From positions 211,854,001 through 211,918,000 of the forward strand of contig OZ024740.1 in NCBI GenBank assembly GCA_964016885.1: a DNA stretch of 64,000 nt. Direction: 5' to 3'. Of the stretch, positions 2,485 to 64,000 are shown in pieces; the first letter of the stretch is position 1; each line of letters opens with the position of its first letter. Source of the DNA: Eledone cirrhosa. Taxonomy: Eukaryota. A program made the translations under genes and the position numbers. The notes below the pieces were generated by a model that worked only from the letters and a program-made list of their open reading frames with translations, searched no databases and had not been told where the DNA came from.

Positions 2485-2901
2485 ACCATCTCGGCCTGGT
2501 GATTTCCAGTTGGTTAGTTTTTGGCCTGCCCCTTAAGAGTTTCAACTGTGATACTCAAATCAGTTTGTTGGTGTGCCTGTTCACTAATCTCCTTCTGTAC
2601 TGTCTCAATCCACACTGCCTAGTCATTATGTCTAACATCCTGCTCCCATATTCCTCTCCAGAATGTTTTAGTTTGTTCCGCCTCAGGGATCAAGTCTTTG
2701 CCTCTTTCTTTCCCTTCAAGCTGTCCAAACAGCATCCTCTGGCTGCTGTCGAACATGCGGTTCTGTTTATACTGACTGACTCTGTTCTCGTATCGCCTAA
2801 TCTTTGCACTCTTTGCTACAATGCATTGCTTCAGTTCCTCTATGATAATATTTAGCTTTTTCCTCCTAGTTTTGTACTCTATTATTATTATTATTATTAT
2901 T

Positions 2902-3004
2902 AGTCTTGCCATTGTGCACTTTTACTCGACCTTATTGTAAACCCCCACTGTCCCTGTCTTTGTATTGTCCCCTACATGTCGGCCCTTGTGGCTAATAAAT
3001 GAAA

Positions 3005-3005
<1 letters not shown>
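2902..3005 (+). mobile_element. Very short 3' terminal fragment of a Tx1-like LINE in (ATT)n
   Basis: Ends CCCTTGTGGCTAATAAATGAAAT followed by CATTATT..., as at 245-275 and 50468-50490. Confidence 0.55.
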
Positions 3006-3041
<36 letters not shown>

Positions 3042-29299: not shown

Positions 29300-32200
29300 C
29301 CACAACATAATGCAGGGAGTCCCTTTGCCTCTGTTTGTCCGCACTGCACAGCTTATCGCTGGCCACATGAACCCAAACCTTTGTGATGCTTCCAGGGAAA
29401 AGTAAAACTCCCTCAACTTCCTCCTCCTCCACCAAATATACTGAAATATTTCGATATCACTCAAGCAGGAAATTCTGTACTCCATAAGATACGTGCATAT
29501 AACAATGTGCTTGCCAAGAGATTAGATTTAGTCCCACATTTAAGATACAAGGTAAGGTTTGTCATATTATTGGATCACTACTTCCAAGTGATGCTTCACT
29601 CAAGTTTGCGCAGCTTTACTTCTATGATACAGATCATGAGTTTCAGAATCGCTTGCATCATGCTAATTTAGATGCTGCTGTCCTGCAGGACCTGCAAGAA
29701 GACTTGCACTACTGCAACACCTATATAAGAAGCTTCAAGGCAGTCATTGAAATGCCAGTCTCTGAAAATGTGAATATTGTCCTACATGCTGACAAAGTAA
29801 AACCCACTGATTTTCATTGTCGCACATATAATCTTCCCATGGCTTCTGAGATTGCTGTTATTCAACCTCATACAGCATTAGATCTCTTGGATGTCATCAT
29901 TCATAAAAGAGATGGTGGTCTTCAGAGGATTCATCAGATTCGCCGTTCTTATGATCCTCTGCATTATGTGCTACTGTTTTCTTGGGGGAATGATGGGTTT
30001 CAGATTGGTTTGAAAAGGACTGACAACAACCACACACTCACAGCCACTGATTTCTACTATTATCGGTTTCAGGTTAGGCAAGGTGACTGTAACATTATCA
30101 TGAAGAGCAGGCGGCTGATGCAGCAATATGCTGTAGATGCCCAGGAAAAAATACAACATTGTCGCCTCAAATGGGCCCACAACAATCAAACCACGATGCG
30201 AGCTGAAAAGTATGAGGGTTTGTATGATGCTGTGGCTGAAGGAGATTTATTAAATGCAGGTCGGAGAATTGCTCTTCCTCCTTCAATCTATGGTTCCCCT
30301 CGCTTCTACAGTGAGTGCTTTCAGAATTCGATGATGTGGTTCGACACATGGGAAAGCCATCTTATTTCATCACGGTAACAACTAACCCTAACTGGGATGA
30401 AATAAAAAATTAGTTTGGACCCTGGTGAAGAACCTAGGAACCGTCCCGATATTTGTGCAAGAGTCTCAAAGATCAAGTATGACAGCCTCATGACATACTG
30501 AAAACAAATGTCCCAGGAAAAGTTGTGGCTCATTCTGCTACAATAGAGTGGCAGAAAAAGAGGCCTCACTCATGTTCATATTCTGCTGATAATAGCTGAA
30601 GTTAGCAAGCCCAAAACTGCAGATGCCATTGATCAGGTAGTCTACTGTGAGATTCCTAATAAAGAGACCAATCCAATTGTGCATAACATCATCATATCCT
30701 GCAACATTCATGGTTCATGTGGACAAGCTAGTATATGCTCATGTATGGAAGGGCTAGGACAACGCCATTGCTCAAAAGGTTATCCTAAGGCATTCAGATA
30801 AATCGCATTTGTTGCCGAAAATTCCTTTCCGGAGTATAGAAGGGATAGACAGCATGGTGGTCACACCCATACAATCCAACTTAAAGGTCAAGAATTTACT
30901 GTTGATAATCGTTGGATTGTTCCATACAACCCTTTCCTCTCATTGAGATATCAGTGCCACATCAATTGTGAGGTTGTCCACAGTGTCAAGGCTGTTAAGT
31001 ACTTATATAAGTACATCACGAAAGGATCAGACAAGATCACTTTCACTATTAAGGATGATCAAGGAAATTGTGTTCATGCCCAAAATGAGATTGAGACCTA
31101 TATCAATGCACGGTACATCTCAGCCAGTGAAGCATTCTGGAGAATCTATAAATTTCCGTTACATCATCGGAAACCGCCATTTGAAAAGTTGCCTTGCCAT
31201 TTACCTGGGGAACAAATGGTCGTGTATGAGCGAGGGCAGGGCAGGAAGAAAATGGTGTTTCTAGGGGACAGCCAATGACTAAGTTGACGAAATATTTTCA
31301 ACTTAATATTAGAGACCCACTGGCACAAAACATATTGTATATTGATACTTAATATTTCATTTGTATCCTAAATATTTCACTTGGACAAGAAGAAAAGTGG
31401 CAAAGATGAAAAAAGGGACATCTGGATAGTGATCAATAATTTATGAGTTAATCTCTTGGACGCATTTCAACAGTATCTCTCACTAGACATCAATCTGAAT
31501 TATATTACCTCAGGATGATCCTACATCACAAGGCTGGGTCAACTTCATACAAAGATTTGAGGACAATTGAAGGAGTTGAATTTCCAACATTCCAAGAAGC
31601 ACGTAGGAAACTTGGTCTTTTGGATGAAGATGGAGAAAAAGACAAAGCTATGGAAGAGGCCTCATCCATTACGCTTGGTCCTCAGCTACGAGAGATCTTC
31701 TGTACCATTTTATTGTACTGCATGCCAAATGACCCTCTGCAGTTCTGGGAGAAATGGAAGAATTGTCTTTCAGAGGACATCATGCATGAACGTCATGAGC
31801 AAGTCATGTCCATGCAAACCGTGCATATTGTTCTACAGAAGATTCAACAAAGACTTCAGCATGATGGCTTGGACATTCATGTCAACTATGGACTTCCTCG
31901 GTCAGACCCAACTATTGTTGCCATACCAGAAATCAACAGGGTTCTTATGGCAGAAACTGATTTCAATACACACCAACTGCAAGCAAACATAATTGAATCC
32001 TGAGCAACTGGTTATATTTCACAAAGTAATCCCCTCTGTAAATGAAAATTAAGGTAGAATTTTCTGCTTGAATGCAAGTGCATGCACAGGAAATACCTAT
32101 GTCAGCAACATCATATTGGATCTAAAAAGAATCCAATCTAATCTAAATCCAATCCAATCTAAAAAGAAATTCCACTTGCCATATATGGAATAGCAACCAC

Positions 32201-33200
32201 AAAGTGCAAGATTCCTCTCAATGTGACTGCTGAATCAACTTGCTTCTTCACAAAGAGGGATGGCACAGGTAAACTTATGCAGCAATCTGACCTGCTAATC
32301 ATTGATGGGATAAGTATGGGACATAAGCATATCTTTGAATGCGTTGACAGGAGCTTCAAAGATGTTCCCGATTGCAAAAAGCTATTTGGTGGTCTAACTG
32401 TATTATTATCTGGTGACTGGAATCAAATTCTTCCAGTTGTACGTCATGGTGTTAGACCACAAATAGTTGAGGCAACCATCAAGAGATATTATCTCTTGGA
32501 CTATGTGGAAACTATAGAGATGACAACCAATCAACGGTTACTTAATGTAGAGGACTCTGGTGGAAGACAGTTTGCAAGCTAACTTCTTGATGTGGGAAAT
32601 GGTAACATTCTAACTGTTCCAACTGTAGATGCATTCACAATTCTTCTGCCAAATGAACTTCGTCTGCAATATAGTAATGTGTCTGAACTGTGTGATTTTG
32701 TGTATACAAATCTTCCAGGAAACTACACAAACCCACTATGGCTTTCAATTATCACTCCAACAAACTTACATACTTAAACTGAAGAAAGGCAGTTGCATCA
32801 CGCTTCTGAGAAATCTGGATCCTCTAAACGGGCATTGCAATGGTACACGCTACACCATCATCAGTTTACATAATCATGTAATTGAAGTTGAAGTGGCATT
32901 GGGTCCAAATGTTGGAACAAGGTTGCTAATCCCAAGGATACCACATGTGTCTCAAGAGCTTGAGTTCACTTTCACCTTTACTCGCAAGCAATTTCCTGTC
33001 AAACCAGCCTTTGCCCTTACATGCAACAATGCACAAGGGCAACACAATTTTTCTCACATGGTCAGATGTATGTTGCATTATCACGAGTTACAAAAAAAAG
33101 AAAATATAAAAATATTAAATGAAGGGGTCTCTTTGCCGACAACTGTGTCTACAAAGAAATTCTACAATGATGTGAAACAGCTATCACTCTCTTTTAGTTG
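29300..33200 (+). pseudogene. Helitron Rep/PIF1-helicase pseudogene
   Basis: SYDPLHYVLLF, LPPSIYGSPR, HUH motif (EWQK-RGLTHVHIL ~30545), KYLYKYITKG, YISASEAFWRI, LLSGDWNQILPVV, CNGTRY, RKQFPVKPAFALT. Confidence 0.92.
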
Positions 33201-33204
33201 AAAT

Positions 33205-38619: not shown

Positions 38620-40610
38620 TTACATATGATTGCTCCACGGGTCGGACACCGTCATCATGGCATGGCGTCAGGTCCCCTACTCCCGCTAGGCCAATCGGGT
38701 CTGTGCGTACTCATTCTCATGCCTCCTGCCTGCGTCACCCGACGGATTCCATGCTGCAAATGTGCATCTTCTCTGGTGTTTGCATGTCATGATAATTTCA
38801 GACTTCAGGTTGACGGCGTCATCCTTCAGTCTGACTCTCTCCATGGCCTTGTGTAGGCACAATCGGCACTTTCTACTTCCGGCCGAATATGCCCTCACGT
38901 GGAGAACGATACTCAATTCCAGGGCGTATGGAGTGCCGTGGTCTTTCATGTCCCACACGAGGTCCGCTAACCTAGTTGAGTGCCTTTTGCTACGGTCCCT
39001 GAAGGAATTCGTGTGATTATACATCCGCGATTTAAAGGTCGTGGATGTTGCGCCGATGTAGGTTCGATGCGCATTTTGGGTTGTAACCACACACTTGTAT
39101 ATTAAGTCTTTCATTAAGCATTTTCCCTGTAGGGGGCACTGGGTGCCCGCTCTACAGTTGCAAGTTCTGCTGTCATTTCTTGTGCGTCCGATGTCTGGGC
39201 CCCGATCTAATATGGCCCTCTCAAGGTTCTCAGGGTGTTGTACAGCCGACACATTTGTCCCCCCCCATGCCACTATTTCCCTCTCGGTGTTGGACCATAT
39301 CGCCTTCGGCGGGCGCTTTGGTCGCCTCGGGGGCCGGGTTGTCATTTGAAGACAGGTCCCTAGGTGGTTCTCCGCGCTCCGAAACATGGTCACTCTGTCG
39401 CCGCGGTTGACGGCCTGTGTGCACCATATTCACCGCGTTAGTTCTAGTCATGTAGTCAGCCATATTTGGCGCCGTGGAGAAGGAGAATTCCACCGTGTGG
39501 CGGTTGAAGATTTTGTGGTACTTATTTGTCGTCGGAAAGCACTCATCCAGCGCTCGGAAGAAAAGTCCTGGCACGTTGGTGCGTACCTGTTTAGAATAAG
39601 GCGCATTGAACCAGGTAACGGCCTTAGATCTGTTCTTTCGTGTGCGTGGATTCTTGTTGGTGTGTCCAGGGCTCGGTGTCCGTCCAGTGCTCTGCCCAAC
39701 CACAATTCGTCTCGTGTGTTGTCCCTGTCTATTTGCCCGCTACGTTCGTCGTGGTTATGTTCTACAGTTATAGATTTACGTCGTGCTATGTGGTCATCTA
39801 TACGTCTATTCCCCTTAGGTCTATGTGATGCTATTGTCGGTGCTGTAGCACTAGAACCAGGCTGGTCGTGCTCCGTGGCGTGTGCCTCGTTCTTATTTGT
39901 CGAAGTCCTGTCAAAGGTCCCAGTTGCCACGGAGTATGCAGTGTGCGTGTCAGCCCCATGCCTCCGCATACTGGGTGGTCTGGCTCCCACGGGTGCCTTA
40001 GTCCTATCTCGGGTCGCTCCTGTGTCATTAAAGTTAGTAGTGTTGCTATTTGTGTTCCTGGCTACTGCTACCGGGTCAATTCTTCTACCTAAGGAGGCGC
40101 CCTCGCTATTGGCATTTCTGCACGCCATATCATTAGGCTCTACTCTATCCGGGGTGTATACTATGGTCTTTGTAACCGGCCCTGCTCAGTGCCTCATTAT
40201 AGTATTTGGCGTGCTGTTTAAACACTTCTGCGTTCGACGACAGGGTGGATACGCGTTTAGTCACCCCTTTAACTATGGCTTCTATGACTGACTCACGGAT
40301 AAGCCGTGTTGATTAAAAAATTGCGATATGCGCTTCCTCATGCGCTCCATCTGACTGGGGTTAAGGGAAGGAAGGTGAAAAGTGCGTCGTCTCTGTATAT
40401 TCCACCTCTGATCCCCGGGATCTCCTCCGTCAGCCTATGGATGAGATATATCCCCACCAGGTCGGTCACCTGCGCCGAGTCACTTGACCCCATGGTGATA
40501 TCGAAACTGTCGGGTCTGTCCCTCCTCTCCCATAACTTGTCTTCGAAACTAATCAGCATCTTTCTGGCTGCTACTATGAGATTGGTCTCGTCATGTTCTC
40601 GCTATTCCTA
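38620..40610 (-). mobile_element. Penelope-like element (RT + GIY-YIG), frameshifted
   Basis: FDITMGSSDSAQVTDLVG and YRDDA (40338..40559). WFNAPYS/IFNR (39230..39703). CNCR..CPL..KC, LIYKC, YIGAT, RMYNH, CRLC (38686..39393). Confidence 0.9.
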
Positions 40611-47818: not shown

Positions 47819-48305
47819 CCAGAGTTTTAACGTACAAAAATATATACGATAAATTAATAAGTTTGAAAGTGAAACTGTGTTTAACTAAGTAACAATGGTG
47901 TATTTACATTAAGTGCCAACAGATCTAGTTTCATTCAATCGATCCAGTAAGAAAACAAAACATATTTATTGAAAAACATATCTTAAACAAATAATAAATT
48001 GTTATATATATTGACAACTGGTATAGGCACGTATATAAATTACACTCGTATATAACTAAAGAAAGATTGTTTGAGACATCTATAAATTGTACTTGACAAA
48101 TTGCAACAGATCTACATTATTTTCTTTAAGTTAGGTAAGTACCCAAGTCTTTATTTATACCTTTTATTAATATATAATACACACACTATTAGTCGAGAAG
48201 TCGAGACACTCAATTGAGTAATATTTTTTTAAAAGCCTTATTGGTTTACATGTAATATATATTCGACCGACAGCTACAAACACATGCATCATCTTTGTTT
48301 TTCTT

Positions 48306-48381
<76 letters not shown>

Positions 48382-48688
48382 ATATCTATCTATACCTTCT
48401 TTCTCTGGGATAGACACATGTGCTGAGCTCGCTCGGTAAGTTTCGTTTAAATTTATCTGGAAATTGTGAACTGTAAACTTTCATTTTTGTACCATTTTGT
48501 AGAGAGACTGCTCTGATCTGATTAGTTTTGGGAATTCTACCTGTTTTTATGTTAAAAAAGTGGCTCCAGCGCTACTTGGTGTTGCAAAAATTCTTGTGGT
48601 CAAAACAATTTTGATTGGTCGGTAGAGGTCATGTGAATGTAAAAAATTGATGTTGCGCCAAGACTGGGAAATGACTCTTTCACAACAA

Positions 48689-48748
<60 letters not shown>

Positions 48749-48833
48749 TAGTAGTGTTCGATGTTGTGATAATGGTTAGCAGGGATGTGTGTGCGGACAG
48801 CAACCTGTTGACAGTTCAAATGGCTATTAAGAT

Positions 48834-48897
<64 letters not shown>

Positions 48898-49004
48898 CAG
48901 AGTAATTCGTGGTAGCGGGATGGTCAGTAGCAATGTGTCTGTAAGGAGTGGGGGGGTATTTTAGCATGTCAAAAGATATTTTTCAGCTTTTGTCTTATAC
49001 GGAG

Positions 49005-49045
<41 letters not shown>

Positions 49046-49294
49046 AGTCTTTTTGTATGTTAATGTACGCGTGTGTATGTGTGTGTGTGTATATATGTGT
49101 GCGTGTGTGTGACAGAATGTGTGTGTGGGGGGACCAGTATTTTTTCCCCCTGGTAAAATGGTGTACATTATTCGATATATTGAGTAAAATCGATTCTCTC
49201 AATTGAGTAATATTTTTTTAAAAGCCTTATTGGTTTACATGTAATATATATTCGACCGACAGCTACAAACACACGCATCATCTTTGTTTTTCTT

Positions 49295-49329
<35 letters not shown>

Positions 49330-49331
<2 letters not shown>

Positions 49332-50490
49332 CATCTGCTGCCAACACCCTTCTAACGGAGGGCTGGGGATGCCGTGGTTGACGATGCGCAAACACGCGCT
49401 CAGGCTGCGGCATCTCTACGTATTCCTCACCGGACAACCGGTGTGGGCCCCGTTCGTGAGGCGAGCCTTCCCACGACTCGTCTCACTGACCGAGCTGCAG
49501 TCCTGGGTCAAGCAGAGACCGAGGAAAATGGGCGACTGGCACATCGAATGTGCTCAGGCGCTCACAGCCCTCTGGCAGGCGGACCCGGCGATCAGTGGAG
49601 ACTCCACTTCGTCATTCTATAGAGGGTTGGTCCGCAGCAAGTGCGACGACGCGCTCGGTGAAACTCTAGGCGTGGAGGAAGATGAACTGGCCAGTCTGTT
49701 CGGTAGGACCTTCCGCCCGGGACCGATGGACAACTTCCAAAAGTCCCTGGCCTGGCAGTGCTACCGAGGAGCTCTACCAGTTCGAGACAAGCTCTACAGA
49801 CATGGGCGCCCGGGCAGGGACCCTGCAAAAAAGATCTGTCCGAGGTGCGTGCGAGACGAAGAAACCGTCGCGCACGCATTCATACACTGCCCGGGCGTCA
49901 CTGACCTGTGGGGATATGTAGAACGACTATTGTCGCGGGTGGGACCAATCCAGTTGACCACCGAGTCCATTGTCATGATCAAACCGCCACCCTCCTTCAA
50001 AAACGAAGGAGAGGCGGTTTTCCTTTGTGTGATAGCTATGGCGAAAGAGGTTGTATGGTGGACAAGGTTGAAAGGGCTGAGGTCAGACACCTTTCTCTCC
50101 GGCCAACAACTGATTCTTTTTTTCAAATACCACTTTGGAAGAAGAATCAGGATGGAGAGAGAGGTGCTGTACCGCAGCAAGTTTTATGAAAGGTGGGTGA
50201 AAGTGGCGAGAATGGCCCGAGTGAATGGGCCTTCTCTCTATATCAGCCTGTAGATTGAGGAAAAGGAGGAGGAGAGGAAAGGAGTACAAGCTCTTCGTAC
50301 TCCTGGAGATGAGGGTTGCACATTTTTTCGGGGGTATGTGTTACCCATATAAACTGTCTCCCTCTATTGGGGAAAATCGACTAACTTTTAAATTCCATCT
50401 GTGATAACATTTTACACGTTTTTATTGTATGTAAACTTCCCCCTTTGTATTTGTCCCCTTCTTTTGTGCCCCTGTGGCTAATAAAGAAAT
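49330..50490 (+). mobile_element. 5'-truncated Tx1/L1-clade LINE inserted in the (TATC)n tract of an array unit
   Basis: GGLGMP, AWQCYRGALPV, CPRC...ETVAHAFIHC (zf-RVT). 3' UTR ends AATAAAGAAAT. TATC tract on both sides. Confidence 0.92.
49369..50253 (+). CDS. C-terminal region of Tx1-like ORF2 (zf-RVT), uninterrupted
   Basis: 294-aa ORF with CCHC motif, GC-rich against its flanks. Confidence 0.85.
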   Translation: MPWLTMRKHALRLRHLYVFLTGQPVWAPFVRRAFPRLVSLTELQSWVKQRPRKMGDWHIECAQALTALWQADPAISGDSTSSFYRGLVRSKCDDALGETLGVEEDELASLFGRTFRPGPMDNFQKSLAWQCYRGALPVRDKLYRHGRPGRDPAKKICPRCVRDEETVAHAFIHCPGVTDLWGYVERLLSRVGPIQLTTESIVMIKPPPSFKNEGEAVFLCVIAMAKEVVWWTRLKGLRSDTFLSGQQLILFFKYHFGRRIRMEREVLYRSKFYERWVKVARMARVNGPSLYISL

Positions 50491-50491
50491 A

Positions 50492-50546
<55 letters not shown>

Positions 50547-50841
50547 ACCTTCTTTCTCTGGGATAGACACATGTGCTGAGCTCGCTCGGTAAGTTTCGTT
50601 TAAATTTATCTGGAAATTGTGAACTGTAAACTTTCATTTTTGTACCATTTTGTAGAGAGACTGCTCTGATCTGATTAGTTTTGGGAATTCTACCTGTTTT
50701 TATGTTAAAAAAGTGGCTCCAGCGCTACTTGGTGTTGCAAAAATTCTTGTGGTCAAAACAATTTTGATTGGTCGGTAGAGGTCATGTGAATGTAAAAAAT
50801 TGATTTTGCGCCAAGACTGGGAAATGACTCTTTCACAACAA

Positions 50842-50877
<36 letters not shown>

Positions 50878-50962
50878 TAGTAGTGTTCGATGTTGTGATA
50901 ATGGTTAGCAGGGATGTGTGTGCGGACAGCAACCTGTTGACAGTTCAAATGGCTATTAAGAT

Positions 50963-51024
<62 letters not shown>

Positions 51025-51405
51025 CAGAGTAATTCGTGGTAGCGGGATGGTCAGTAGGAATGTGTCTGTAAGGAGTGGGGGGGGGTATTTTAGCATGTCA
51101 AAAGATATTTTTCAGCTTTTGTCTTATACGGAGAAGTGTGTGTGTGTGTGTGTATAAGTCTCTTTGTATGTTAATGTACGCGTGTGTATGTGTGTGTGTG
51201 TATATATGTGTGCGTGTGTGTGACAGAATGTGTGTGTGGGGGGACCAGTATGTTTTCCCCCTGGTAAAATGGTGTACATTATTCGATATATTGAGTAAAA
51301 TCGATTCTCTCAATTGAGTAATATTTTTTTAAAAGCCTTATTGGTTTACATGTAATATATATTCGACCGACAGCTACAAACACACGCATCATCTTTGTTT
51401 TTCTT

Positions 51406-51477
<72 letters not shown>

Positions 51478-51798
51478 ACCTTCTTTCTCTGGGATAGACA
51501 CATGTGCTGAGCTCGCTCGGTAAGTTTCGTTTAAATTTATCTGGAAATTGTGAACTGTAAACTTTCATTTTTGTACCATTTTGTAGAGAGACTGCTCTGA
51601 TCTGATTAGTTTTGGGAATTCTACCTGTTTTTATGTTAAAAAAGTGGCTCCAGCGCTACTTGGTGTTGCAAAAATTCTTGTGGTCAAAACAATTTTGATT
51701 GGTCGGTAGAGGTCATGTGAATGTAAAAAATTGATTTTGCGCCAAGACTGGGAAATGACTCTTTCACAACAAATATGTGTGTGTGTGTGTGTGTGTGT

Positions 51799-51840
<42 letters not shown>

Positions 51841-52062
51841 TAGTAGTGTTCGATGTTGTGATAATGGTTAGCAGGGATGTGTGTGCGGACAGCAACCTGT
51901 TGACAGTTCAAATGGCTATTAAGATAAGTGTGTGTGTGTGTGTGTGTGTGTGTAGCAGAGTAATTCGTGGTAGCGGGATGGTCAGTAGGAATGTGTCTGT
52001 AAGGAGTGGGGGGGTATTTTAGCATGTCAAAAGATATTTTTCAGCTTTTGTCTTATACGGAG

Positions 52063-52105
<43 letters not shown>

Positions 52106-52353
52106 AGTCTCTTTGTATGTTAATGTACGCGTGTGTATGTGTGTGTGTGTATATATGTGTGCGTGTGTGTGACAGAATGTGTGTGTGGGGGGACCAGTAT
52201 TTTTCCCCCTGGTAAAATGGTGTACATTATTCGATATATTGAGTAAAATCGATTCTCTTAATTGAGTAATATTTTTTTAAAAGCCTTATTGGTTTACATG
52301 TAATATATATTCGACCGACAGCTACAAACACACGCATCTTCTTTGTTTTTCTT

Positions 52354-52413
<60 letters not shown>

Positions 52414-52708
52414 ACCTTCTTTCTCCTTGATAGACACATGTGCTGAGCTCGCTCGGTAAGTTTCGTTTAAATTTATCTGGAAATTGTGAACTGTAAACTT
52501 TCATTTTTGTACCATTTTGTAGAGAGACTGCTCTGATCTGATTAGTTTTGGGAATTCTACCTGTTTCTATGTTAAAAAAGTGGCTCCAGCGCTACTTGGT
52601 GTTGCAAAAATTCTTGTGGTCAAAACAATTTTGATTGGTCGGTAGAGGTCATGTGAATGTAAAAAATTGATTTTGCGCCAAGACTGGGAAATGACTCTAT
52701 CACAACAA

Positions 52709-52792
<84 letters not shown>

Positions 52793-52877
52793 TAGTAGTG
52801 TTCGATGTTGTGATAATGGTTAGCAGGGATGTGTGTGCGGACAGCAACCTGTTGACAGTTCAAATGGCTATTAAGAT

Positions 52878-52967
<90 letters not shown>

Positions 52968-53187
52968 TAGTAGTGTTCGATGTTGTGATAATGGTTAGCA
53001 GGGATGTGTGTGCGGACAGCAACCTGTTGACAGTTCAAATGGCTATTAAGATAAGTGTGTGTGTGTGTGTGTGTGTGTAGCAGAGTAATTCGTGGTAGCG
53101 GGATGGTCAGTAGGAATGTGTCTGTAAGGAGTGGGGGGGTATTTTAGCATGTCAAAAGATATTTTTCAGCTTTTGTCTTATACGGAG

Positions 53188-53288
<101 letters not shown>

Positions 53289-53398
53289 GCAGAGTAATTC
53301 GTGGTAGCGGGATGGTCAGTAGGAATGTGTCTGTAAGGAGTGGGGGGGTATTTTAGCATGTCAAATGATATTTTTCAGCTTTTGTCTTATACGGAGAA

Positions 53399-53433
<35 letters not shown>

Positions 53434-53684
53434 AGTCTCTTTGTATGTTAATGTACGCGTGTGTATGTGTGTGTGTGTGTATATATGTGTGCGTGTGTGT
53501 GACAGAATGTGTGTGTGGGGGGACCAGTATGTTTTCCCCCTGGTAAAATGGTGTACATTATTCGATATATTGAGTAAAATCGATTCTCTCAATTGAGTAA
53601 TATTTTTTTAAAAGCCTTATTGGTTTACATGTAATATATATTCGACCGACAGCTACAAACACACGCATCATCTTTGTTTTTCTT

Positions 53685-53744
<60 letters not shown>

Positions 53745-54039
53745 ACCTTCTTTCTCTGGGATAGACACATGTGCTGAGCTCGCTCGGTAAGTTTCGTTTA
53801 AATTTATCTCGAAATTGTGAACTGTAAACTTTCATTTTTGTACCATTTTGTAGAGAGACTGCTCTGATCTGATTAGTTTTGGGAAATCTACCTGTTTTTA
53901 TGTTAAAAAAGTGGCTCCAGCGCTACTTGGTGTTGCAAAAATTATTGTGGTCAAAACAATTTTGATTGGTCGGTAGAGGTCATGTGAATGTAAAAAATTG
54001 ATTTTGCGCCAAGACTGGGAAATGACTCTTTCACAACAA

Positions 54040-54144
<105 letters not shown>

Positions 54145-54252
54145 GCAGAGTAATTCGTGGTAGCGGGATGGTCAGTAGGAATGTGTCTGTAAGGAGTGGG
54201 GGGGTATTTTAGCATGTCAAATGATATTTTTCAGCTTTTGTCTTATACGGAG

Positions 54253-54289
<37 letters not shown>

Positions 54290-54540
54290 AGTCTCTTTGT
54301 ATGTTAATGTACGCGTGTGTATGTGTGTGTGTGTGTATATATGTGTGCGTGTGTGTGACAGAATGTGTGTGTGGGGGGACCAGTATGTTTTCCCCCTGGT
54401 AAAATGGTGTACATTATTCGATATATTGAGTAAAATCGATTCTCTCAATTGAGTAATATTTTTTTAAAAGCCTTATTGGTTTACATGTAATATATATTCG
54501 ACCGACAGCTACAAACACACGCATCATCTTTGTTTTTCTT

Positions 54541-54612
<72 letters not shown>

Positions 54613-54907
54613 ACCTTCTTTCTCTGGGATAGACACATGTGCTGAGCTCGCTCGGTAAGTTTCGTTTAAATTTATCTCGAAATTGTGAACTGTAAACTTT
54701 CATTTTTGTACCATTTTGTAGAGAGACTGCTCTGATCTGATTAGTTTTGGGAAATCTACCTGTTTTTATGTTAAAAAAGTGGCTCCAGCGCTACTTGGTG
54801 TTGCAAAAATTATTGTGGTCAAAACAATTTTGATTGGTCGGTAGAGGTCATGTGAATGTAAAAAATTGATTTTGCGCCAAGACTGGGAAATGACTCTTTC
54901 ACAACAA

Positions 54908-54995
<88 letters not shown>

Positions 54996-55215
54996 TAGTA
55001 GTGTTCGATGTTGTGATAATGGTTAGCAGGGATGTGTGTGCGGACAGCAACCTGTTGACAGTTCAAATGGCTATTAAGATAAGTGTGTGTGTGTGTGTGT
55101 GTGTGTAGCAGAGTAATTCGTGGTAGCGGGATGGTCAGTAGGAATGTGTCTGTAAGGAGTGGGGGGGTATTTTAGCATGTCAAAAGATATTTTTCAGCTT
55201 TTGTCTTATACGGAG

Positions 55216-55254
<39 letters not shown>

Positions 55255-55503
55255 AGTCTCTTCGTATGTTAATGTACGCGTGTGTATGTGTGTGTGTGTA
55301 TATATGTGTGCGTGTGTGTGACAGAATGTGTGTGTGGGGGGACCAGTATTTTTTCCCCCTGGTAAAATGGTGTACATTATTCGATATATTGAGTAAAATC
55401 GATTCTCTCAATTGAGTAATATTTTTTTAAAAGCCTTATTGGTTTACATGTAATATATATTCGACCGACAGCTAAAAACACACGCATCATCTTTGTTTTT
55501 CTT

Positions 55504-55607
<104 letters not shown>

Positions 55608-55902
55608 ACCTTCTTTCTCTGGGATAGACACATGTGCTGATGTCGCTCGGTAAGTTTCGTTTAAATTTATCTGGAAATTGTGAACTGTAAACTTTCATTT
55701 TTGTACCATTTTGTAGAGAGACTGCTCTGATCTGATTAGTTTTGGGAATTCTACCTGTTTTTATGTTAAAAAAGTGGCTCCAGCGCTACTTGGTGTTGCA
55801 AAAATTCTTGTGGTCAAAACAATTTTGATTGGTCGGTAGAGGTCATGTGAATGTAAAAAATTGATTTTGCGCCAAGACTGGGAAATGACTCTTTCACAAC
55901 AA

Positions 55903-55960
<58 letters not shown>

Positions 55961-56182
55961 TAGTAGTGTTCGATGTTGTGATAATGGTTAGCAGGGATGT
56001 GTGTGCGGACAGCAACCTGTTGACAGTTCAAATGGCTATTAAGATAAGTGTGTGTGTGTGTGTGTGTGTGTGTAGCAGAGTAATTCGTGGTAGCGGGATG
56101 GTCAGTAGGAATGTGTCTGTAAGGAGTGGGGGGGTATTTTAGCATGTCAAAAGATATTTTTCAGCTTTTGTCTTATACGGAG

Positions 56183-56229
<47 letters not shown>

Positions 56230-56477
56230 AGTCTCTTTGTATGTTAATGTACGCGTGTGTATGTGTGTGTGTGTATATATGTGTGCGTGTGTGTGACAGA
56301 ATGTGTGTGTGGGGGGACCAGTATTTTTCCCCCTGGTAAAATGGTGTACATTATTCGATATATTGAGTAAAATCGATTCTCTTAATTGAGTAATATTTTT
56401 TTAAAAGCCTTATTGGTTTACATGTAATATATATTCGACCGACAGCTACAAACACACGCATCTTCTTTGTTTTTCTT

Positions 56478-56557
<80 letters not shown>

Positions 56558-56852
56558 ACCTTCTTTCTCCTTGATAGACACATGTGCTGAGCTCGCTCGG
56601 TAAGTTTCGTTTAAATTTATCTGGAAATTGTGAACTGTAAACTTTCATTTTTGTACCATTTTGTAGAGAGACTGCTCTGATCTGATTAGTTTTGGGAATT
56701 CTACCTGTTTCTATGTTAAAAAAGTGGCTCCAGCGCTACTTGGTGTTGCAAAAATTCTTGTGGTCAAAACAATTTTGATTGGTCGGTAGAGGTCATGTGA
56801 ATGTAAAAAATTGATTTTGCGCCAAGACTGGGAAATGACTCTATCACAACAA

Positions 56853-56914
<62 letters not shown>

Positions 56915-56999
56915 TAGTAGTGTTCGATGTTGTGATAATGGTTAGCAGGGATGTGTGTGCGGACAGCAACCTGTTGACAGTTCAAATGGCTATTAAGAT

Positions 57000-57076
<77 letters not shown>

Positions 57077-57184
57077 GCAGAGTAATTCGTGGTAGCGGGA
57101 TGGTCAGTAGGAATGTGTCTGTAAGGAGTGGGGGGGTATTTTAGCATGTCAAATGATATTTTTCAGCTTTTGTCTTATACGGAG

Positions 57185-57219
<35 letters not shown>

Positions 57220-57468
57220 AGTCTCTTTGTATGTTAATGTACGCGTGTGTATGTGTGTGTGTGTATATATGTGTGCGTGTGTGTGACAGAATGTGTGTGT
57301 GGGGGGACCAGTATATTTTCCCCCTGGTAAAATGGTGTACATTATTCGATATATTGAGTAAAATCGATTCTCTCAATTGAGTAATATTTTTTTAAAAGCC
57401 TTATTGGTTTACATGTAATATATATTCGACCGACAGCTACAAACACACGCATCATCTTTGTTTTTCTT

Positions 57469-57552
<84 letters not shown>

Positions 57553-57847
57553 ACCTTCTTTCTCTGGGATAGACACATGTGCTGAGCTCGCTCGGTAAGT
57601 TTCGTTTAAATTTATCTCGAAATTGTGAACTGTAAACTTTCATTTTTGTACCATTTTGTAGAGAGACTGCTCTGATCTGATTAGTTTTGGGAAATCTACC
57701 TGTTTTTATGTTAAAAAAGTGGCTCCAGCGCTACTTGGTGTTGCAAAAATTATTGTGGTCAAAACAATTTTGATTGGTCGGTAGAGGTCATGTGAATGTG
57801 AAAAATTGATTTTGCGCCAAGACTGGGAAATGACTCTTTCACAACAA

Positions 57848-57929
<82 letters not shown>

Positions 57930-58149
57930 TAGTAGTGTTCGATGTTGTGATAATGGTTAGCAGGGATGTGTGTGCGGACAGCAACCTGTTGACAGTTCAA
58001 ATGGCTATTAAGATAAGTGTGTGTGTGTGTGTGTGTGTGTAGCAGAGTAATTCGTGGTAGCGGGATGGTCAGTAGGAATGTGTCTGTAAGGAGTGGGGGG
58101 GTATTTTAGCATGTCAAAAGATATTTTTCAGCTTTTGTCTTATACGGAG

Positions 58150-58188
<39 letters not shown>

Positions 58189-58437
58189 AGTCTCTTCGTA
58201 TGTTAATGTACGCGTGTGTATGTGTGTGTGTGTATATATGTGTGCGTGTGTGTGACAGAATGTGTGTGTGGGGGGACCAGTATTTTTTCCCCCTGGTAAA
58301 ATGGTGTACATTATTCGATATATTGAGTAAAATCGATTCTCTCAATTGAGTAATATTTTTTTAAAAGCCTTATTGGTTTACATGTAATATATATTCGACC
58401 GACAGCTAAAAACACACGCATCATCTTTATTTTTCTT

Positions 58438-58533
<96 letters not shown>

Positions 58534-58828
58534 ACCTTCTTTCTCTGGGATAGACACATGTGCTGATGTCGCTCGGTAAGTTTCGTTTAAATTTATCTGG
58601 AAATTGTGAACTGTAAACTTTCATTTTTGTACCATTTTGTAGAGAGACTGCTCTGATCTGATTAGTTTTGGGAATTCTACCTGTTTTTATGTTAAAAAAG
58701 TGGCTCCAGCGCTACTTGGTGTTGCAAAAATTATTGTGGTCAAAACAATTTTGATTGGTCGGTAGAGGTCATGTGAATGTAAAAAATTGATTTTGCGCCA
58801 AGACTGGGAAATGACTCTTTCACAACAA

Positions 58829-58926
<98 letters not shown>

Positions 58927-59149
58927 TAGTAGTGTTCGATGTTGTGATAATGGTTAGCAGGGATGTGTGTGCGGACAGCAACCTGTTGACAGTTCAAATG
59001 GCTATTAAGATAAGTGTGTGTGTGTGTGTGTGTGTGTAGCAGAGTAATTCGTGGTAGCGGGATGGTCAGTAGGAATGTGTCTGTAAGGAGTGGGGGGGGG
59101 GTGTTTTAGCATGTCAAAAGATATTTTTCAGCTTTTGTCTTATACGGAG

Positions 59150-59186
<37 letters not shown>

Positions 59187-59435
59187 AGTCTCTTTGTATG
59201 TTAATGTACGCGTGTGTATGTGTGTGTGTGTATATATGTGTGCGTGTGTGTGACAGAATGTGTGTGTGGGGGGACCAGTATTTTTTCCCCCTGGTAAAAT
59301 GGTGTACATTATTCGATATATTGAGTAAAATCGATTCTCTCAATTGAGTAATATTTTTTTAAAAGCCTTATTGGTTTTCATGTAATATATATTCGACCGA
59401 CAGCTAAAAACACACGCATCATCTTTGTTTTTCTT

Positions 59436-59499
<64 letters not shown>

Positions 59500-59797
59500 A
59501 CCTTCTTTCTCTGGGATAGACACATGTGCTGAGGTCGCTCGGTAAGTTTCGTTTAAATTTATCTGGAAATTGTGAACTGTAAACTTTCATTTTTGTACCA
59601 TTTTGTAGAGAGACTGCTCTGATCTGATTAGTTTTGGGAATTCTACCTGTTTTTATGTTAAAAAAGTGGCTCCAGCGCTACTTGGTGTTGCAAAAATTCT
59701 TGTGGTCAAAACAATTTTGATTGGTCGGTAGAGGTCATGTGAATGTAAAAAATTGATTTTGCGCCAAGACTGGGAAATGACTCTTTCACAACAAATA

Positions 59798-59831
<34 letters not shown>

Positions 59832-59929
59832 TGTGTGTGTGTAGTAGTAGTGTTCGATGTTGTGATAATGGTTAGCAGGGATGTGTGTGCGGACAGCAAC
59901 CTGTTGACAGTTCAAATGGCTATTAAGAT

Positions 59930-59999
<70 letters not shown>

Positions 60000-60109
60000 C
60001 AGAGTAATTCGTGGTAGCGGGATGGTCAGTAGGAATGTGTCTGTAAGGAGTGGGGTGGGGGTATTTTAGCATGTCAAAAGATATTTTTCAGCTTCTGTCT
60101 TATACGGAG

Positions 60110-60146
<37 letters not shown>

Positions 60147-60395
60147 AGTCTCTTTGTATGTTAATGTACGCGTGTGTATGTGTGTGTGTGTATATATGTG
60201 TGCGTGTGTGTGACAGAATGTGTGTGTGGGGGGACCAGTATTTTTTCCCCCTGGTAAAATGGTGTACATTATTCGATATATTGAGTAAAATCGATTCTCT
60301 CAATTGAGTAATATTTTTTTAAAAGCCTTATTGGTTTTCATGTAATATATATTCGACCGACAGCTACAAACACACGCATCATCTTTGTTTTTCTT

Positions 60396-60459
<64 letters not shown>

Positions 60460-60498
60460 ATCCATCTCTGGGATGGACACACGCGTATAACTTGCTGA

Positions 60499-60565
60499 GT
60501 AAGTTCTGTTTAAATTTCTATAGAAATTCTTGTCTGATAACTTTAATTTTTGTACCATTTTGTAG
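60499..60565 (+). promoter_or_regulatory. Putative 67-nt intron in the LINE 5' UTR; a homolog is present in each array unit (e.g. 59542-59608)
   Basis: GTAAGT donor, CTGATAAC branch-like motif, T-rich tract, TTTTGTAG acceptor. Same length in the array copy. Confidence 0.5.
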
Positions 60566-60678
60566 AGGGACTGCCAGGTCAAACTTTGATCTGGTCAGTC
60601 TCTCAAAATATTCTACGCCTTTAGGCGAAATAGTTAAAAAAAAAGTTTTTTCTTGTTGAAAAGTCAATATTTTTTTAA

Positions 60679-61854
60679 ATGGCCGAAGCTTCTTCACCAA
60701 AATTCGAAGGAGGAAAGGGGAAGATGAACTTACAGCTTCCCCCTGCCACTGTCACAGTAGCAGAGGTCAAGAAGATAGGTCAGCCAGAGGAAGGATTTTC
60801 ACCACCTGTTGACCGACAACTTGACGTTGCCATGGCAACAAACCAAAGAACCAGCGGCACCAGCAACAGCAACAACAACAACAATGCGACGGACGAAAAC
60901 AACACCAATAACAATAACAACAACAACAAGACCAATAACTGTGATAACAACAACAATGATAACAACAACACCACCAACTACAACAGCAACACAAACAAAC
61001 AAAAATTTCTCCATCGCCGAGACGGCAAGGAAAACCCTCGACTATCTGCCAGTAGATATAACCAAAGCGAAGAAGCTACTGGCAGATGCCAAAAAATATA
61101 TAGTGTACGGGGAAAATGGTTCATTCACGGTCCATTCCCCCCCCGGGAACTAAAAAGCCAGAGACTCCTAAACACTGTCATGTTTAGGACAATCTCGAAT
61201 AAAAGCAAAAATCCAGCTCAACCATCACAGAGTGAGATAGAGCTGGTTTTAAAAGACGTCATGAAGGACATCACCTTCATTCAGAAGGATAGGCTCTACG
61301 GGAGTCTATCCATTCTCATGAAGGACAGGGACACAGCAGTGAAACTGTCCATCAAACCAATCGCATCCACCGCATACACCTTCTACCCTACGTACATGGG
61401 TAGAAGAAGACAAAAAATAAAAATCCACACCATCCTGCCGATTATGGACATATGGTGGGTTTTGACAGGTTTCCTGGACCTGGATGATGACACGCTGGTG
61501 TCCATGGGAAAGGCATCGGGTGACGCGTTCAGTGGAACGACCCTCGAACTTGTAGTTCAAATGAGGCCCGAAAGGATCGCCCAGATCCCTGAACGCGTCA
61601 TACTGGATGATCAAACTTTCATCAACATTACCGTTGAGGGTAGGCGGCCCTCGTGTTACCTCTGCGGAACCAGAGGTCACCTGAGGGCTGTCTGTCCCCA
61701 ACTTAATAAGAAAACCCCAATCCTGCCTACACGACCAACAACTGCAAAACCAACACAATCACCACAACTACCACTACAAAAACAACCACCACAGCTCAAA
61801 CCAAAACAAAACAATGTCCAACCCATCCCCCCCCCCATTAAAAAAAAAAAATAA
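60679..61854 (+). CDS. LINE ORF1 (gag-like, CX2CX4HX4C knuckle); probably frameshifted at the poly-A near 61850
   Basis: EGRRPSCYLCGTRGHLRAVCP, Asn-rich N-terminus, Pro/Gln/Thr-rich tail. Confidence 0.85.
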   Translation: MAEASSPKFEGGKGKMNLQLPPATVTVAEVKKIGQPEEGFSPPVDRQLDVAMATNQRTSGTSNSNNNNNATDENNTNNNNNNNKTNNCDNNNNDNNNTTNYNSNTNKQKFLHRRDGKENPRLSASRYNQSEEATGRCQKIYSVRGKWFIHGPFPPRELKSQRLLNTVMFRTISNKSKNPAQPSQSEIELVLKDVMKDITFIQKDRLYGSLSILMKDRDTAVKLSIKPIASTAYTFYPTYMGRRRQKIKIHTILPIMDIWWVLTGFLDLDDDTLVSMGKASGDAFSGTTLELVVQMRPERIAQIPERVILDDQTFINITVEGRRPSCYLCGTRGHLRAVCPQLNKKTPILPTRPTTAKPTQSPQLPLQKQPPQLKPKQNNVQPIPPPIKKKK

Positions 61855-62499
61855 TTTCCAAAACACCCGCACCGCAAACACAACCCGAAAATATACCCCT
61901 CCCTTCCAACGCGGAAAATGACCCTAGTTCGTCGTCAGACGAGAGGAGCACTTCCACACAATCAAAAGAAAAAAAAGAAAACACACCTCAGACACACAAA
62001 TGAAAACAACCCCTCCCCAAAACATAACACTGACACCAACACAAAAGAGCTCACAACAACAGCAAACAAAAAACACCACACAAAAACAAAAACAAGCATA
62101 CACATACATAAACACAAGAAACAAAAAACTGTTAAACATTGTGTACAACAACAATCTAATAAAAACCCAAGGGCCTAACTTCACCCAGGCAGGGGATTTC
62201 CCCCACCTCAAAATGATTAAGGCCCCACAGGACAACTATAAACTTTAAAAAACAACTTTAAAGAGGACGTGGGTCCCCCCCTGCGTCGGGCCCATTAACC
62301 GCGTCCTCCTAGAAAACTACCCCACCCCTCCCCAAACACCCACACAACTCCAAACTCCCCAACCACACAACACACTGATGCCCCTACACCTCCACAAACC
62401 ACCACCCCACCCAACAACCCATACCCCACCCTAATGGAAATTGTGCAGCCCGATACCCGGGACGCAGAGGGGTAAGTGCCTTTTCTCTTCACCACCAAC

Positions 62500-63669
62500 A
62501 TGGCCATGCTAAGAGTAGGCTGTTTAAATGCGCGTGGCCTGGGCTCAACTTGGAAGCAAGCAATGCTTCTAAATGACCTCAGGTCACAACGTATAGATGT
62601 GATGGTTATTTGCGAGGCCCGGATCAGCAACGTGCGACAGCTGGCCCCCACCTTTGATGACTTTGAGATGCACGCATCTCTCTGTCAGCCCGGAGGTGGG
62701 GGTGGGGTTGTCGTTCTGCTGCAAAAACATCTGGGTCTCGCAACACAGATGGTACATTTGGACCCGGAGGGTCGACTAGTGGTTCTGGACCTTGGCAGTG
62801 GTAAAGGCGGAGCGTTTAGGTTGGTAGCCGCCTACGGCCCTTTCGGGTCAATGCGGCCGGACTTCTTCCATCGTCTGGAGACTTTTCTAGGGACGTCCCG
62901 CTCCTTGCTATTAGTGGGGGACTGGAATGGTATCCTAGATGCACGCTGGGACTACGTAGGGGCCTGTCCCGATAGAGAGGGGTGTAATAGCCTCAAAGGG
63001 TTAATCGGTCGATTTGACCTGGCCGATAGATATCGACTAGATTTTCCGACTGCGTCAACCTGGACTTGGGCAAATCGTAGCGGATCATCTAGGTCGTACC
63101 TAGATAGGTTCTTATTTAGAATTAAGGATAAGGACTTTTTAAGTTGTCCAAAAATGCGCATGGTTGGCTATTCAGACCACAAGTTAGTGACCTGCATGGT
63201 CAACCTTGACAGAACTCATAGACAGGGACCCGGTTACGGGAAGCTCAACTTGTCCTTACCAGCAAGTAAGGCTTACAGGGACCGGATTAGCACTTTAGTT
63301 AAGGAGCGGTTGACGGGCGCCATCGTCAACAGCAGGTGGTGGGGATCTCTCAAAAGAGAGATTAGAGTAGTCTCTATAGAATTTAGTAAGGAGTTAGCCT
63401 CAAATAGAAATAGGAAGGAAAGGGAGTTGGTAGATAGTGTAGAAGAGGCAATTAGAAGCGGCGACGTGGCCAGAGTGCTAGCGTCGAGAACGGCCCTGGG
63501 CCAGTTCTTCGACGCGAAACACGAAGGCTGCATCGTCCGAAGCAAAATACGTGCTCTGGGAAACGAGGGGACCAAAGTTGTTAGCTGGGCCCGCGTGACA
63601 GAAGCCAAAAAGAGGGAGCAGATCCACTATCCGGTCTTTGCGAGACCAGGAAGGACGGATGATCCTTGA
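62500..63669 (+). CDS. LINE ORF2 N-terminus: AP-like endonuclease (frameshift near 63610-63670 before RT)
   Basis: CLNARGL, ICEAR, GGVVVL, EGRLVV, AAYGP, VGDWNG, SYLDRF, YSDHK. Confidence 0.92.
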   Translation: MAMLRVGCLNARGLGSTWKQAMLLNDLRSQRIDVMVICEARISNVRQLAPTFDDFEMHASLCQPGGGGGVVVLLQKHLGLATQMVHLDPEGRLVVLDLGSGKGGAFRLVAAYGPFGSMRPDFFHRLETFLGTSRSLLLVGDWNGILDARWDYVGACPDREGCNSLKGLIGRFDLADRYRLDFPTASTWTWANRSGSSRSYLDRFLFRIKDKDFLSCPKMRMVGYSDHKLVTCMVNLDRTHRQGPGYGKLNLSLPASKAYRDRISTLVKERLTGAIVNSRWWGSLKREIRVVSIEFSKELASNRNRKERELVDSVEEAIRSGDVARVLASRTALGQFFDAKHEGCIVRSKIRALGNEGTKVVSWARVTEAKKREQIHYPVFARPGRTDDP

Positions 63670-64000
63670 ACCTAAGCAGATGTGCGAGGCTTTTCAAAAG
63701 CACTTTGCCGGATTGTTCGGAAGGGGCGGGGAGCCGGTTGGGGGTGTGGACTTCGGTCCATACCTCGACGGCCTGCCGCGTCTCTCGGACAGGGAGGCGA
63801 AGTCCTGCGAGGAGCAGATTTCAGCCGCTGAGATAGATGACGTGCTGAGCCAATGCGGCAAACGCAAATCCCCGGGTCTCGATGGTCTTCCATACGAACT
63901 ATATCTAGCTATGCCGGACTTGTTCCCCGATCTCCTCGAGGCGGTCTACTGCAACTGGCAACAGAACGGGAGAATTCCCTGTGCTGTGACCAAGGGCGTA

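Follow-up and report, generated by a model that had tools for sequence, protein, structure and literature searches.

A putative 67-nt mini-intron shared by the 5′ head of an L1/Tx1-type LINE and a tandem array in Eledone cirrhosa

Introduction

The RNA of a LINE is itself the template for new copies and, because of this, LINEs are expected to lose introns. Splice sites occur in the 5′ UTR of zebrafish L2 and have reportedly been found in TART. A short 5′-UTR intron is described in Penelope of Drosophila virilis. In the sections of the two papers that deal with it (PMC2377424, PMC8557442), this intron measures 75 nt, begins 46 nt from the start and lies in the region of the internal promoter; its splice sites are conserved at an overall identity of 67%, and it is mostly spliced in RNA, needed for the production of a reporter protein and kept in the DNA copies. 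For the human L1 5′ UTR, the portion of PMC5860796 devoted to splicing reports conserved donor and acceptor sites, transcripts that mostly evade splicing, and spliced DNA copies (SpIREs) that represent 116 of 6,609 full-length L1s (~1.8%).

Several Tx1 families are known to target microsatellites, namely Kibi (TC)n, Koshi (TTC)n and crocodilian families (TTCC)n/(TTTC)n, and the pages that describe them do not mention a 5′-UTR intron (PMC4494074). In O. vulgaris, 13 recently active L1-Tx1 families have been reported in an article whose main text does not contain the term 'intron' (PMC13282606). LINEs can also give rise to satellites, and the relevant part of a review lists the cetacean L1 3′ end, chicken HinfI/CR1, PROsat and 18HT (PMC9659126). 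A search of the open-access literature, with subscription papers and Repbase outside its scope, yielded, among the papers listed, no L1/Tx1 family with a conserved and retained 5′-UTR mini-intron. Here we analyse a stretch of 64,000 nt of the genome of Eledone cirrhosa (the window), in which an L1/Tx1-type LINE and a tandem array carry the same intron-like module.

Results

The full-length LINE lies on the + strand, directly after a (TATC)15 tract (60397-60459) that is probably its target site. ORF1 (60679-61854, +), of 391 aa and open in this copy, resembles eukaryotic RRM/CCHC proteins. It contains a CCHC knuckle, a feature of the Tx1 clade, with a weak PF00098 match below the cut-off (E=0.027) and Atlas CCHC clusters at 0.92. 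ORF2 (62500-64000, +) comprises an N-terminal APE endonuclease (PF03372, E=3.8e-8) and the start of the RT region, changes frame near 63602-63612 and runs off the window; the full-length copy carries frame breaks. A 5′-truncated sister copy (49333-50491, +), inserted in a (TATC)n tract of the array, retains the ORF2 C-terminus with a zf-RVT domain (E=8e-7) and a CxxC-x8-H-x4-C motif, the 3′ UTR and a 3′ AATAAA. A homolog, P0019, is 61-66% identical to both copies and, compared with solved structures, matches L1 ORF2p with E~1e-50 and R2 with 1e-24 or weaker; indirectly, through P0019, the RT thus appears closest to L1 ORF2p. Judging from its APE, RT and CCHC regions, the element is an L1/Tx1-type LINE. 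Both copies (2/2) sit in (TATC)n tracts, both within one array, a location that would fit microsatellite-targeting Tx1 families. Like the Kibi/Koshi-type elements, as these are described in the pages cited above, it is an APE-RT element with a CCHC ORF1 found in simple repeats; unlike them its apparent target, as judged from two copies, is (TATC)n. Searches for relatives gave none among 64 metagenome candidates for the endonuclease and none among 243 candidates for ORF1 residues 140-360.

Several other features of the element and its surroundings were observed. Two 3′ ends related to that of the LINE (TGTGGYTAATAAA..GAAAT), at positions 1-266 and ~2900-3006 of the window, adjoin (ATT)n and not (TATC)n, suggesting sister families with other microsatellite targets. 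At the 5′ junction of the truncated copy (49327-49340), judged from P0019 and a loose end of an X4 contig, the TATC tract passes into ORF2 through a few shared bases (microhomology). A second GTAAGT (62472-62477) overlaps an in-frame TAA of the ORF1 frame, just 5′ of the ORF2 ATG at 62500, and the end of ORF2 in the sister copy (50230-50253) contains what is, by the rule applied here, the strongest acceptor-like site, with 12/14 pyrimidines and AG at 50246. Splicing from the 62472 donor to such an acceptor at the ORF2 end would remove ORF2 and give an ORF1-only RNA, of the HAL1-like kind. Inspection by eye of the open reading frames also revealed remains of other mobile elements: an RT-type LINE (365-2532), Gypsy-like gag/pol (13303-15451), a Helitron-like helicase region (29503-33201) and a GIY-YIG/Penelope-like piece (38686-40185).

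The pattern GTAAGT-N53-TTTTGTAG has 12 exact matches on the + strand of the window, 11 in the array (48436 to 59542) and one in the LINE (60499-60565); with up to two mismatches there are 13 matches, versus a mean of 0.82 in shuffled sequences. A sequence-only reading of this DNA had proposed a 67-nt GTAAGT...TTTTGTAG module common to array and LINE, and we confirmed it in 11/11 array heads and in the LINE. The LINE version (60499-60565, +), with no ATG inside, starts with the donor GTAAGT (60499-60504), ends with the acceptor TAG (60563-60565) and contains two branch candidates (60534-60538 and 60543-60547, +). The array version, in the last unit at 59542-59608 (+), has a single variable column among the 11 copies. 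The two versions are identical at 55/67 positions without any gap and form part of an ungapped homologous block (59508-59617 versus 60465-60574; 86/110 identical) with 23/34 identities upstream of the module and 8/9 downstream. This qualifies the earlier description, the flanks being homologous too and the module not isolated. The block is followed by a 10-nt indel and by ~40 nt of weaker likeness, with a score equalled by 11/300 shuffles, and past that stretch no likeness exceeded that of shuffles (130/300 as good). Since the likeness extends beyond the 67 nt, the shared unit is a head of ~150 nt rather than an isolated module. The head, which begins where the (TATC)n tract stops, represents the 5′ end of the LINE itself. 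Its counterpart in the last array unit (59500-59648, +) has a 10-nt gap and several changes at the place of an 18-bp hairpin of the LINE. Within the module, TTTAAATTT-N5-GAAATT boxes (60509-60528) are kept and the spacer between them varies in three versions; in the LINE versions the boxes make up a TTC-N4-GAA dyad, a possible site of protein binding.

The module has the features of a U2-type intron: a GT donor, a branch A, a pyrimidine tract (modest, with 10/14 pyrimidines) and YAG. Signal positions (+1 to +6 and -14 to -1) are identical between array and LINE in 20/20 cases versus 66/90 for the other positions (Fisher p=0.004, in a post hoc test on one pair of sequences), in agreement with the earlier view that donor and acceptor are kept. 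The longest identical run, of 22 nt, is not significant by itself (permutation p=0.058). In both versions the last 42 nt 5′ of the acceptor are free of AG, and a yUnAy motif with its A at -20 is kept (TTAAT in the LINE, TTCAT in the array). It is this motif, and not the CTGwwAAC put forward by the sequence-only reading, that represents the kept branch candidate: the CTGAT of the LINE (A at -29) is missing from the array and changed in some contigs (60537 A>T, 60538 T>G). Outside the array, only 1/12 GTAAGT is followed by an acceptor-like site 55-100 nt further on. Among the contig variants shown (40 of 50 variant rows), none falls in GTAAGT or in the last 13 nt of the module, and the absence of the main variants from signal sites (0/10) is not significant (P=0.25); variant 60498 A>G improves the donor and variant 60545 falls on the free position of yUnAy. 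Taken at the level of sequence, the splice signals look selected. The 'intron' is putative, a spliced junction being seen nowhere in the window or contigs. An AATTT..AAATT hairpin had also been said to be kept; the palindrome is indeed present, but shuffled sequences fold as well as the 67 nt do (z 0.32 and 0.54), and we rejected the hairpin as an RNA structure.

The layout resembles that of Penelope, with a short 5′-UTR intron of 67 nt at ~39 nt here versus 75 nt at 46 nt there. The resemblance is limited to the 5′ intron, since Penelope is a PLE with GIY-YIG and pseudo-LTRs whereas this element has an APE endonuclease and a two-ORF layout. Splicing and a role in expression have been demonstrated for Penelope; here they are predictions from sequence.

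Four public contig sets (X1, X2, X4 and X6) were aligned to 60448-60863 at 80% likeness, giving 370, 327, 2 and 3 contigs, respectively. X1 and X2 derive from a single sample, which may also be the source of the window; a total of ~1,400 million contig letters suggests that they are genomic DNA. Summed contig depth drops from ~13,000 to 660-850 (about 700-850) below 60462, which agrees with the earlier placement of the 5′ end directly after the (TATC)n tract. Over 60483-60574/5, contigs without any difference from the LINE have depths of 2198 (X1) and 2355 (X2), beside contigs of depth 4-9; this contrast points to many near-identical copies of the head, depth being no copy number. Diverged contigs start at 60464-60467 and, over a length of ~155-160 nt, differ in 17-23 letters and contain 0-1 gaps. 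LINE variants leave the reference as loose ends after 60611 and 60634, about where the array homology ends, and another loose end shows a further in-register version of the spacer before 60539, in which the TTTAAATTT and GAAATT boxes persist. This version differs from the window LINE at 8/30 positions, compared with 9/30 for the array. At four of the ten main head variants (60498, 60533, 60537 and 60545) the variant letter equals that of the array, with the caveat that some contigs aligned to the LINE, as well as some shared alleles, could derive from arrays. The depth edge, the diverged contigs, the loose ends and the spacer variant therefore place the head at the LINE 5′ end, and the head of the array resembles a further LINE variant. 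The module is not covered by any contig of X4 or X6: X6 gave short matches to A/T-rich runs (60636-60676), and the junctions found in X4, located at GATC 60588, look like proximity-ligation products and were set aside; the shares in X4-X6 (0.31, 0.22 and 0.22) are small and were not counted as evidence. No RNA run containing the array head appeared among the matches listed, and the 29-nt acceptor pattern had no match in metagenome and viral contigs.

From the depth edge and the loose ends, the LINE head extends over 60460-60611 (+) and is likely an internal Pol II promoter region, by analogy with L1 and Penelope as far as the cited sections describe them (PMC5860796, PMC2377424). It would begin with a putative first exon of 39 nt (60460-60498, +), in which folding predicts a terminal hairpin of 7 bp (60461-60477) and the ATG at 60473 opens an upstream ORF of 5 codons.

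A search for genomic LINE copies lacking the 67 nt, which the sequence-only reading had envisaged, returned none: the 12 window copies all keep the piece (0/12 intronless) and no joint skipping the module is found among those listed in ~700 contigs (0/3), a dataset that drops rare forms and cannot prove absence. The listed joints lie elsewhere (60632-60693, 60648-60703 and 60764-60804, with depths of 6.7, 56 and 51), and 3 of 22 listed records (683 further ones not listed) bridge both module junctions unspliced with at least 31 letters on each side. Since contigs lose rare forms, spliced DNA copies are limited but not excluded by these data, which say nothing direct on RNA. No indel is listed across the whole head, not just the module. 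Conserved 5′-UTR splice sites in an element of the L1 group recall human L1; the spliced segment of human L1, as given in the splicing portion of its source, measures hundreds of bases, whereas here the length is fixed at 67 nt and no spliced copy occurs among the joints listed.

An 18-bp RNA hairpin (60565-60604, +; -27.9 kcal/mol) is predicted at the acceptor, whose G it pairs. It is kept in its two common variants, one in the loop (60584) and one that shifts a bulge (60574), at -27.9 and -25.8 kcal/mol. The first 150 nt of the LINE fold with z=-4.44 versus z=+1.73 for the array head (compared with shuffles), and the array head, without 10 nt of one hairpin arm, folds at -5.7. The absence of the hairpin would fit decay in the array, although the 10-nt arm could instead be a gain in the LINE; descent from LINE to array is the likely direction in what is an unrooted comparison.

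The array (48198-60459, +) contains 11 heads, in units with (TG)n tracts that end in (TATC)n. The units measure 868-1331 bp (~0.95 kb), mostly 720-724 bp without microsatellites. Its left end at 48198 falls mid-unit, with no TATC tract upstream; this end (48198-48208) is at the start of the palindrome CTCAATTGAG, against unique DNA. The 11 heads vary at only 12/298 columns and, given this near-identity, identical splice sites within the array are uninformative. Haplotypes recur along the array (52456=56600; 53787=54655, near 57595; 55650 near 58576), and the units show duplications and deletions between the (TG)n tracts. Read from these sequences, the recurrence is as expected of unequal crossing-over and apparently shows amplification at the DNA level. 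Head-to-tail homogenised units with a piece of a transposable element and signs of recombination are what characterises TE-derived satellites, and the array is most likely, on this comparison, a satellite seeded by the head of a sister LINE. The proposal that it consists of spliced non-coding transcription units was not supported, the head being the LINE's own 5′ end and the array showing amplification of the recombination type. Its units could be transcribed if the head still acts as promoter. Each of them contains, 3′ of the acceptor, an ATG-started frame of 21 codons (59620-59700, by eye) with no sign of use. We considered and rejected homology of the array with ORF1 or the 3′ end of the LINE, the likeness to the 3′ end being matched by 54/300 shuffles. 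An Rfam search gave 41 weak matches, which scored far under the gathering thresholds and for the most part lay on TG repeats, and among which mir-297, SCARNA7, sno_ZL1, mir-4012 and EBv-sisRNA-1 were rejected. The known LINE-derived satellites, as summarised in the part of the review cited above, likewise hold a piece of a non-LTR element in the tandem unit; they stem from 3′ ends or ORF2, whereas here the unit contains the 5′ head plus the target tract, and the array, unlike them, has been re-invaded by the same LINE family.

Discussion

The explanation that we tentatively prefer, at somewhat less than even odds, is that the module is a promoter-proximal mini-intron in the ~150-nt head of an L1/Tx1-type LINE inserted in (TATC)n, its signals kept for expression and its unspliced RNA copied, and that the array is a satellite derived from the head of a sister LINE left stranded there. 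In the sequence, the edge of the tract marks the start of the head, which has donor, branch-like and acceptor motifs at a fixed spacing. Pol II would start at the head, and binding of U1/U2 ~40 nt downstream would aid transcription or RNA processing, as in Penelope. The RNA that is reverse-transcribed would rarely be spliced, possibly as a consequence of the 18-bp hairpin burying the acceptor G, and new copies would then keep both intron and promoter. An old insertion junction, flank-(TATC)n-head, may have been turned into ~0.95-kb units by unequal recombination, and the TATC tracts of the amplified units may subsequently have been hit again by the LINE. L1-type elements work in cis, and when L1 RNAs are spliced their DNA copies are spliced as well; a reading with little splicing is therefore favoured. 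We rank the alternatives below it, in decreasing order of probability.

Unlikely, but first among these alternatives, is that the 67 nt are never removed. The motifs would be DNA-level promoter elements or would serve for U1 docking only, and the acceptor look would be the by-product of a T-rich box. The unspliced state of the 12 window copies and of the bridging contigs agrees with this, as does the lack of a listed joint at the module (0/3) though one of depth 6.7 is listed elsewhere; the whole head, and not only the module, is without listed indels, and taking out the module would take out no upstream ATG. However, donor, yUnAy at -20, AG-free zone and TAG co-occur at an intron-like spacing that is rare in flanking DNA (1/12). 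The DNA copies of Penelope, in the published sections considered here, keep an intron that is truly spliced, so that unspliced DNA is compatible with splicing, and contigs drop rare forms.

A little less probable is a division of labour between spliced mRNA and unspliced template, which the sequence-only reading had put forward; in the manner of Penelope, most LINE RNA would be spliced and translated and the unspliced RNA would be copied in trans. The 67 nt would then be a true, efficiently spliced 5′-UTR intron needed for translation, and only unspliced RNA would be reverse-transcribed. The geometry is alike, and for Penelope the sections at hand report that most transcripts lack the intron and that its deletion abolishes the reporter protein. 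Conserved signals together with intron-keeping DNA copies, as found here, are what it predicts. Against it, the proteins of L1 work in cis, the spliced RNAs of L1 are known to yield DNA copies that are spliced too (116/6,609, in the portion cited of PMC5860796), the present RT family has its closest match in L1 ORF2p, and the predicted hairpin pairs the acceptor G. If it were true, the L1 cis-preference would be broken and the strategy of Penelope would have been repeated by convergence; a LINE head in a satellite would make an array of spliced transcription units, and use of the second GTAAGT, where the ORF1 frame ends, would give in addition a spliced RNA with ORF1 only.

More doubtful still, in our view, is the idea that the array represents a non-coding gene of the host, present in many copies, transcribed by Pol II and interrupted by a 67-nt intron, with a head that the LINE family captured long ago. 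The splice signals are the same in 11/11 units and also in the LINE, from which the array diverges by 22%; moreover, in the pages cited of PMC4494074, Tx1 elements often target multicopy genes and Tx1-driven SINEs captured snRNA-derived heads. Nevertheless, with units near-identical throughout (12/298 variable columns), conservation within the array is uninformative, no Rfam match comes near gathering scores, internal duplications and deletions disrupt the units, and the spacers of LINE variants differ among themselves about as much as they differ from the array.

It is improbable that the array unit is a non-autonomous retroelement, in which the LINE head is followed by a body unrelated to it and by a tail of (TATC)n, and which inserted repeatedly into its own tract: the order head-body-(TATC)n, the 5′-truncated leftmost unit and the target shared with the LINE would agree with it, but the unit end is unlike the LINE 3′ end (54/300 shuffles as good) and has no AATAAA, no TATC precedes the truncated unit, and the haplotype pattern is of the recombination type. 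Spliced-leader arrays are known to be paired with site-specific elements, and the donor position, an Sm-like run and the ~1-kb tandem layout are seen in the sequence; that the array is such a locus, with a 42-nt leader, a GGTAAG donor and an AUUUUUG Sm-like site, into which a site-specific LINE has inserted, is nonetheless very improbable, given that the donor is followed in cis by a conserved acceptor, shuffled sequences fold better than the array head (z=+1.73), the head belongs to the LINE and Rfam gives no SL match (an undescribed SL would be missed).

Returning to the preferred reading of a rarely spliced mini-intron, each of its ingredients is precedented (microsatellite-targeting Tx1 elements, LINE 5′-UTR splice sites, retained PLE introns and LINE-derived satellites), and the combination is a variant on known themes. 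Without splicing, the locus would hold an ordinary LINE 5′ UTR and a TE-derived satellite. It shows a satellite whose likely origin is the promoter head of a LINE together with the microsatellite targeted by that LINE, and which was invaded anew afterwards. Conserved intron-like signals of fixed length in a multi-copy L1/Tx1 element would offer a compact test both of how introns are kept, a question open for Penelope, and of cis-preference outside mammals.
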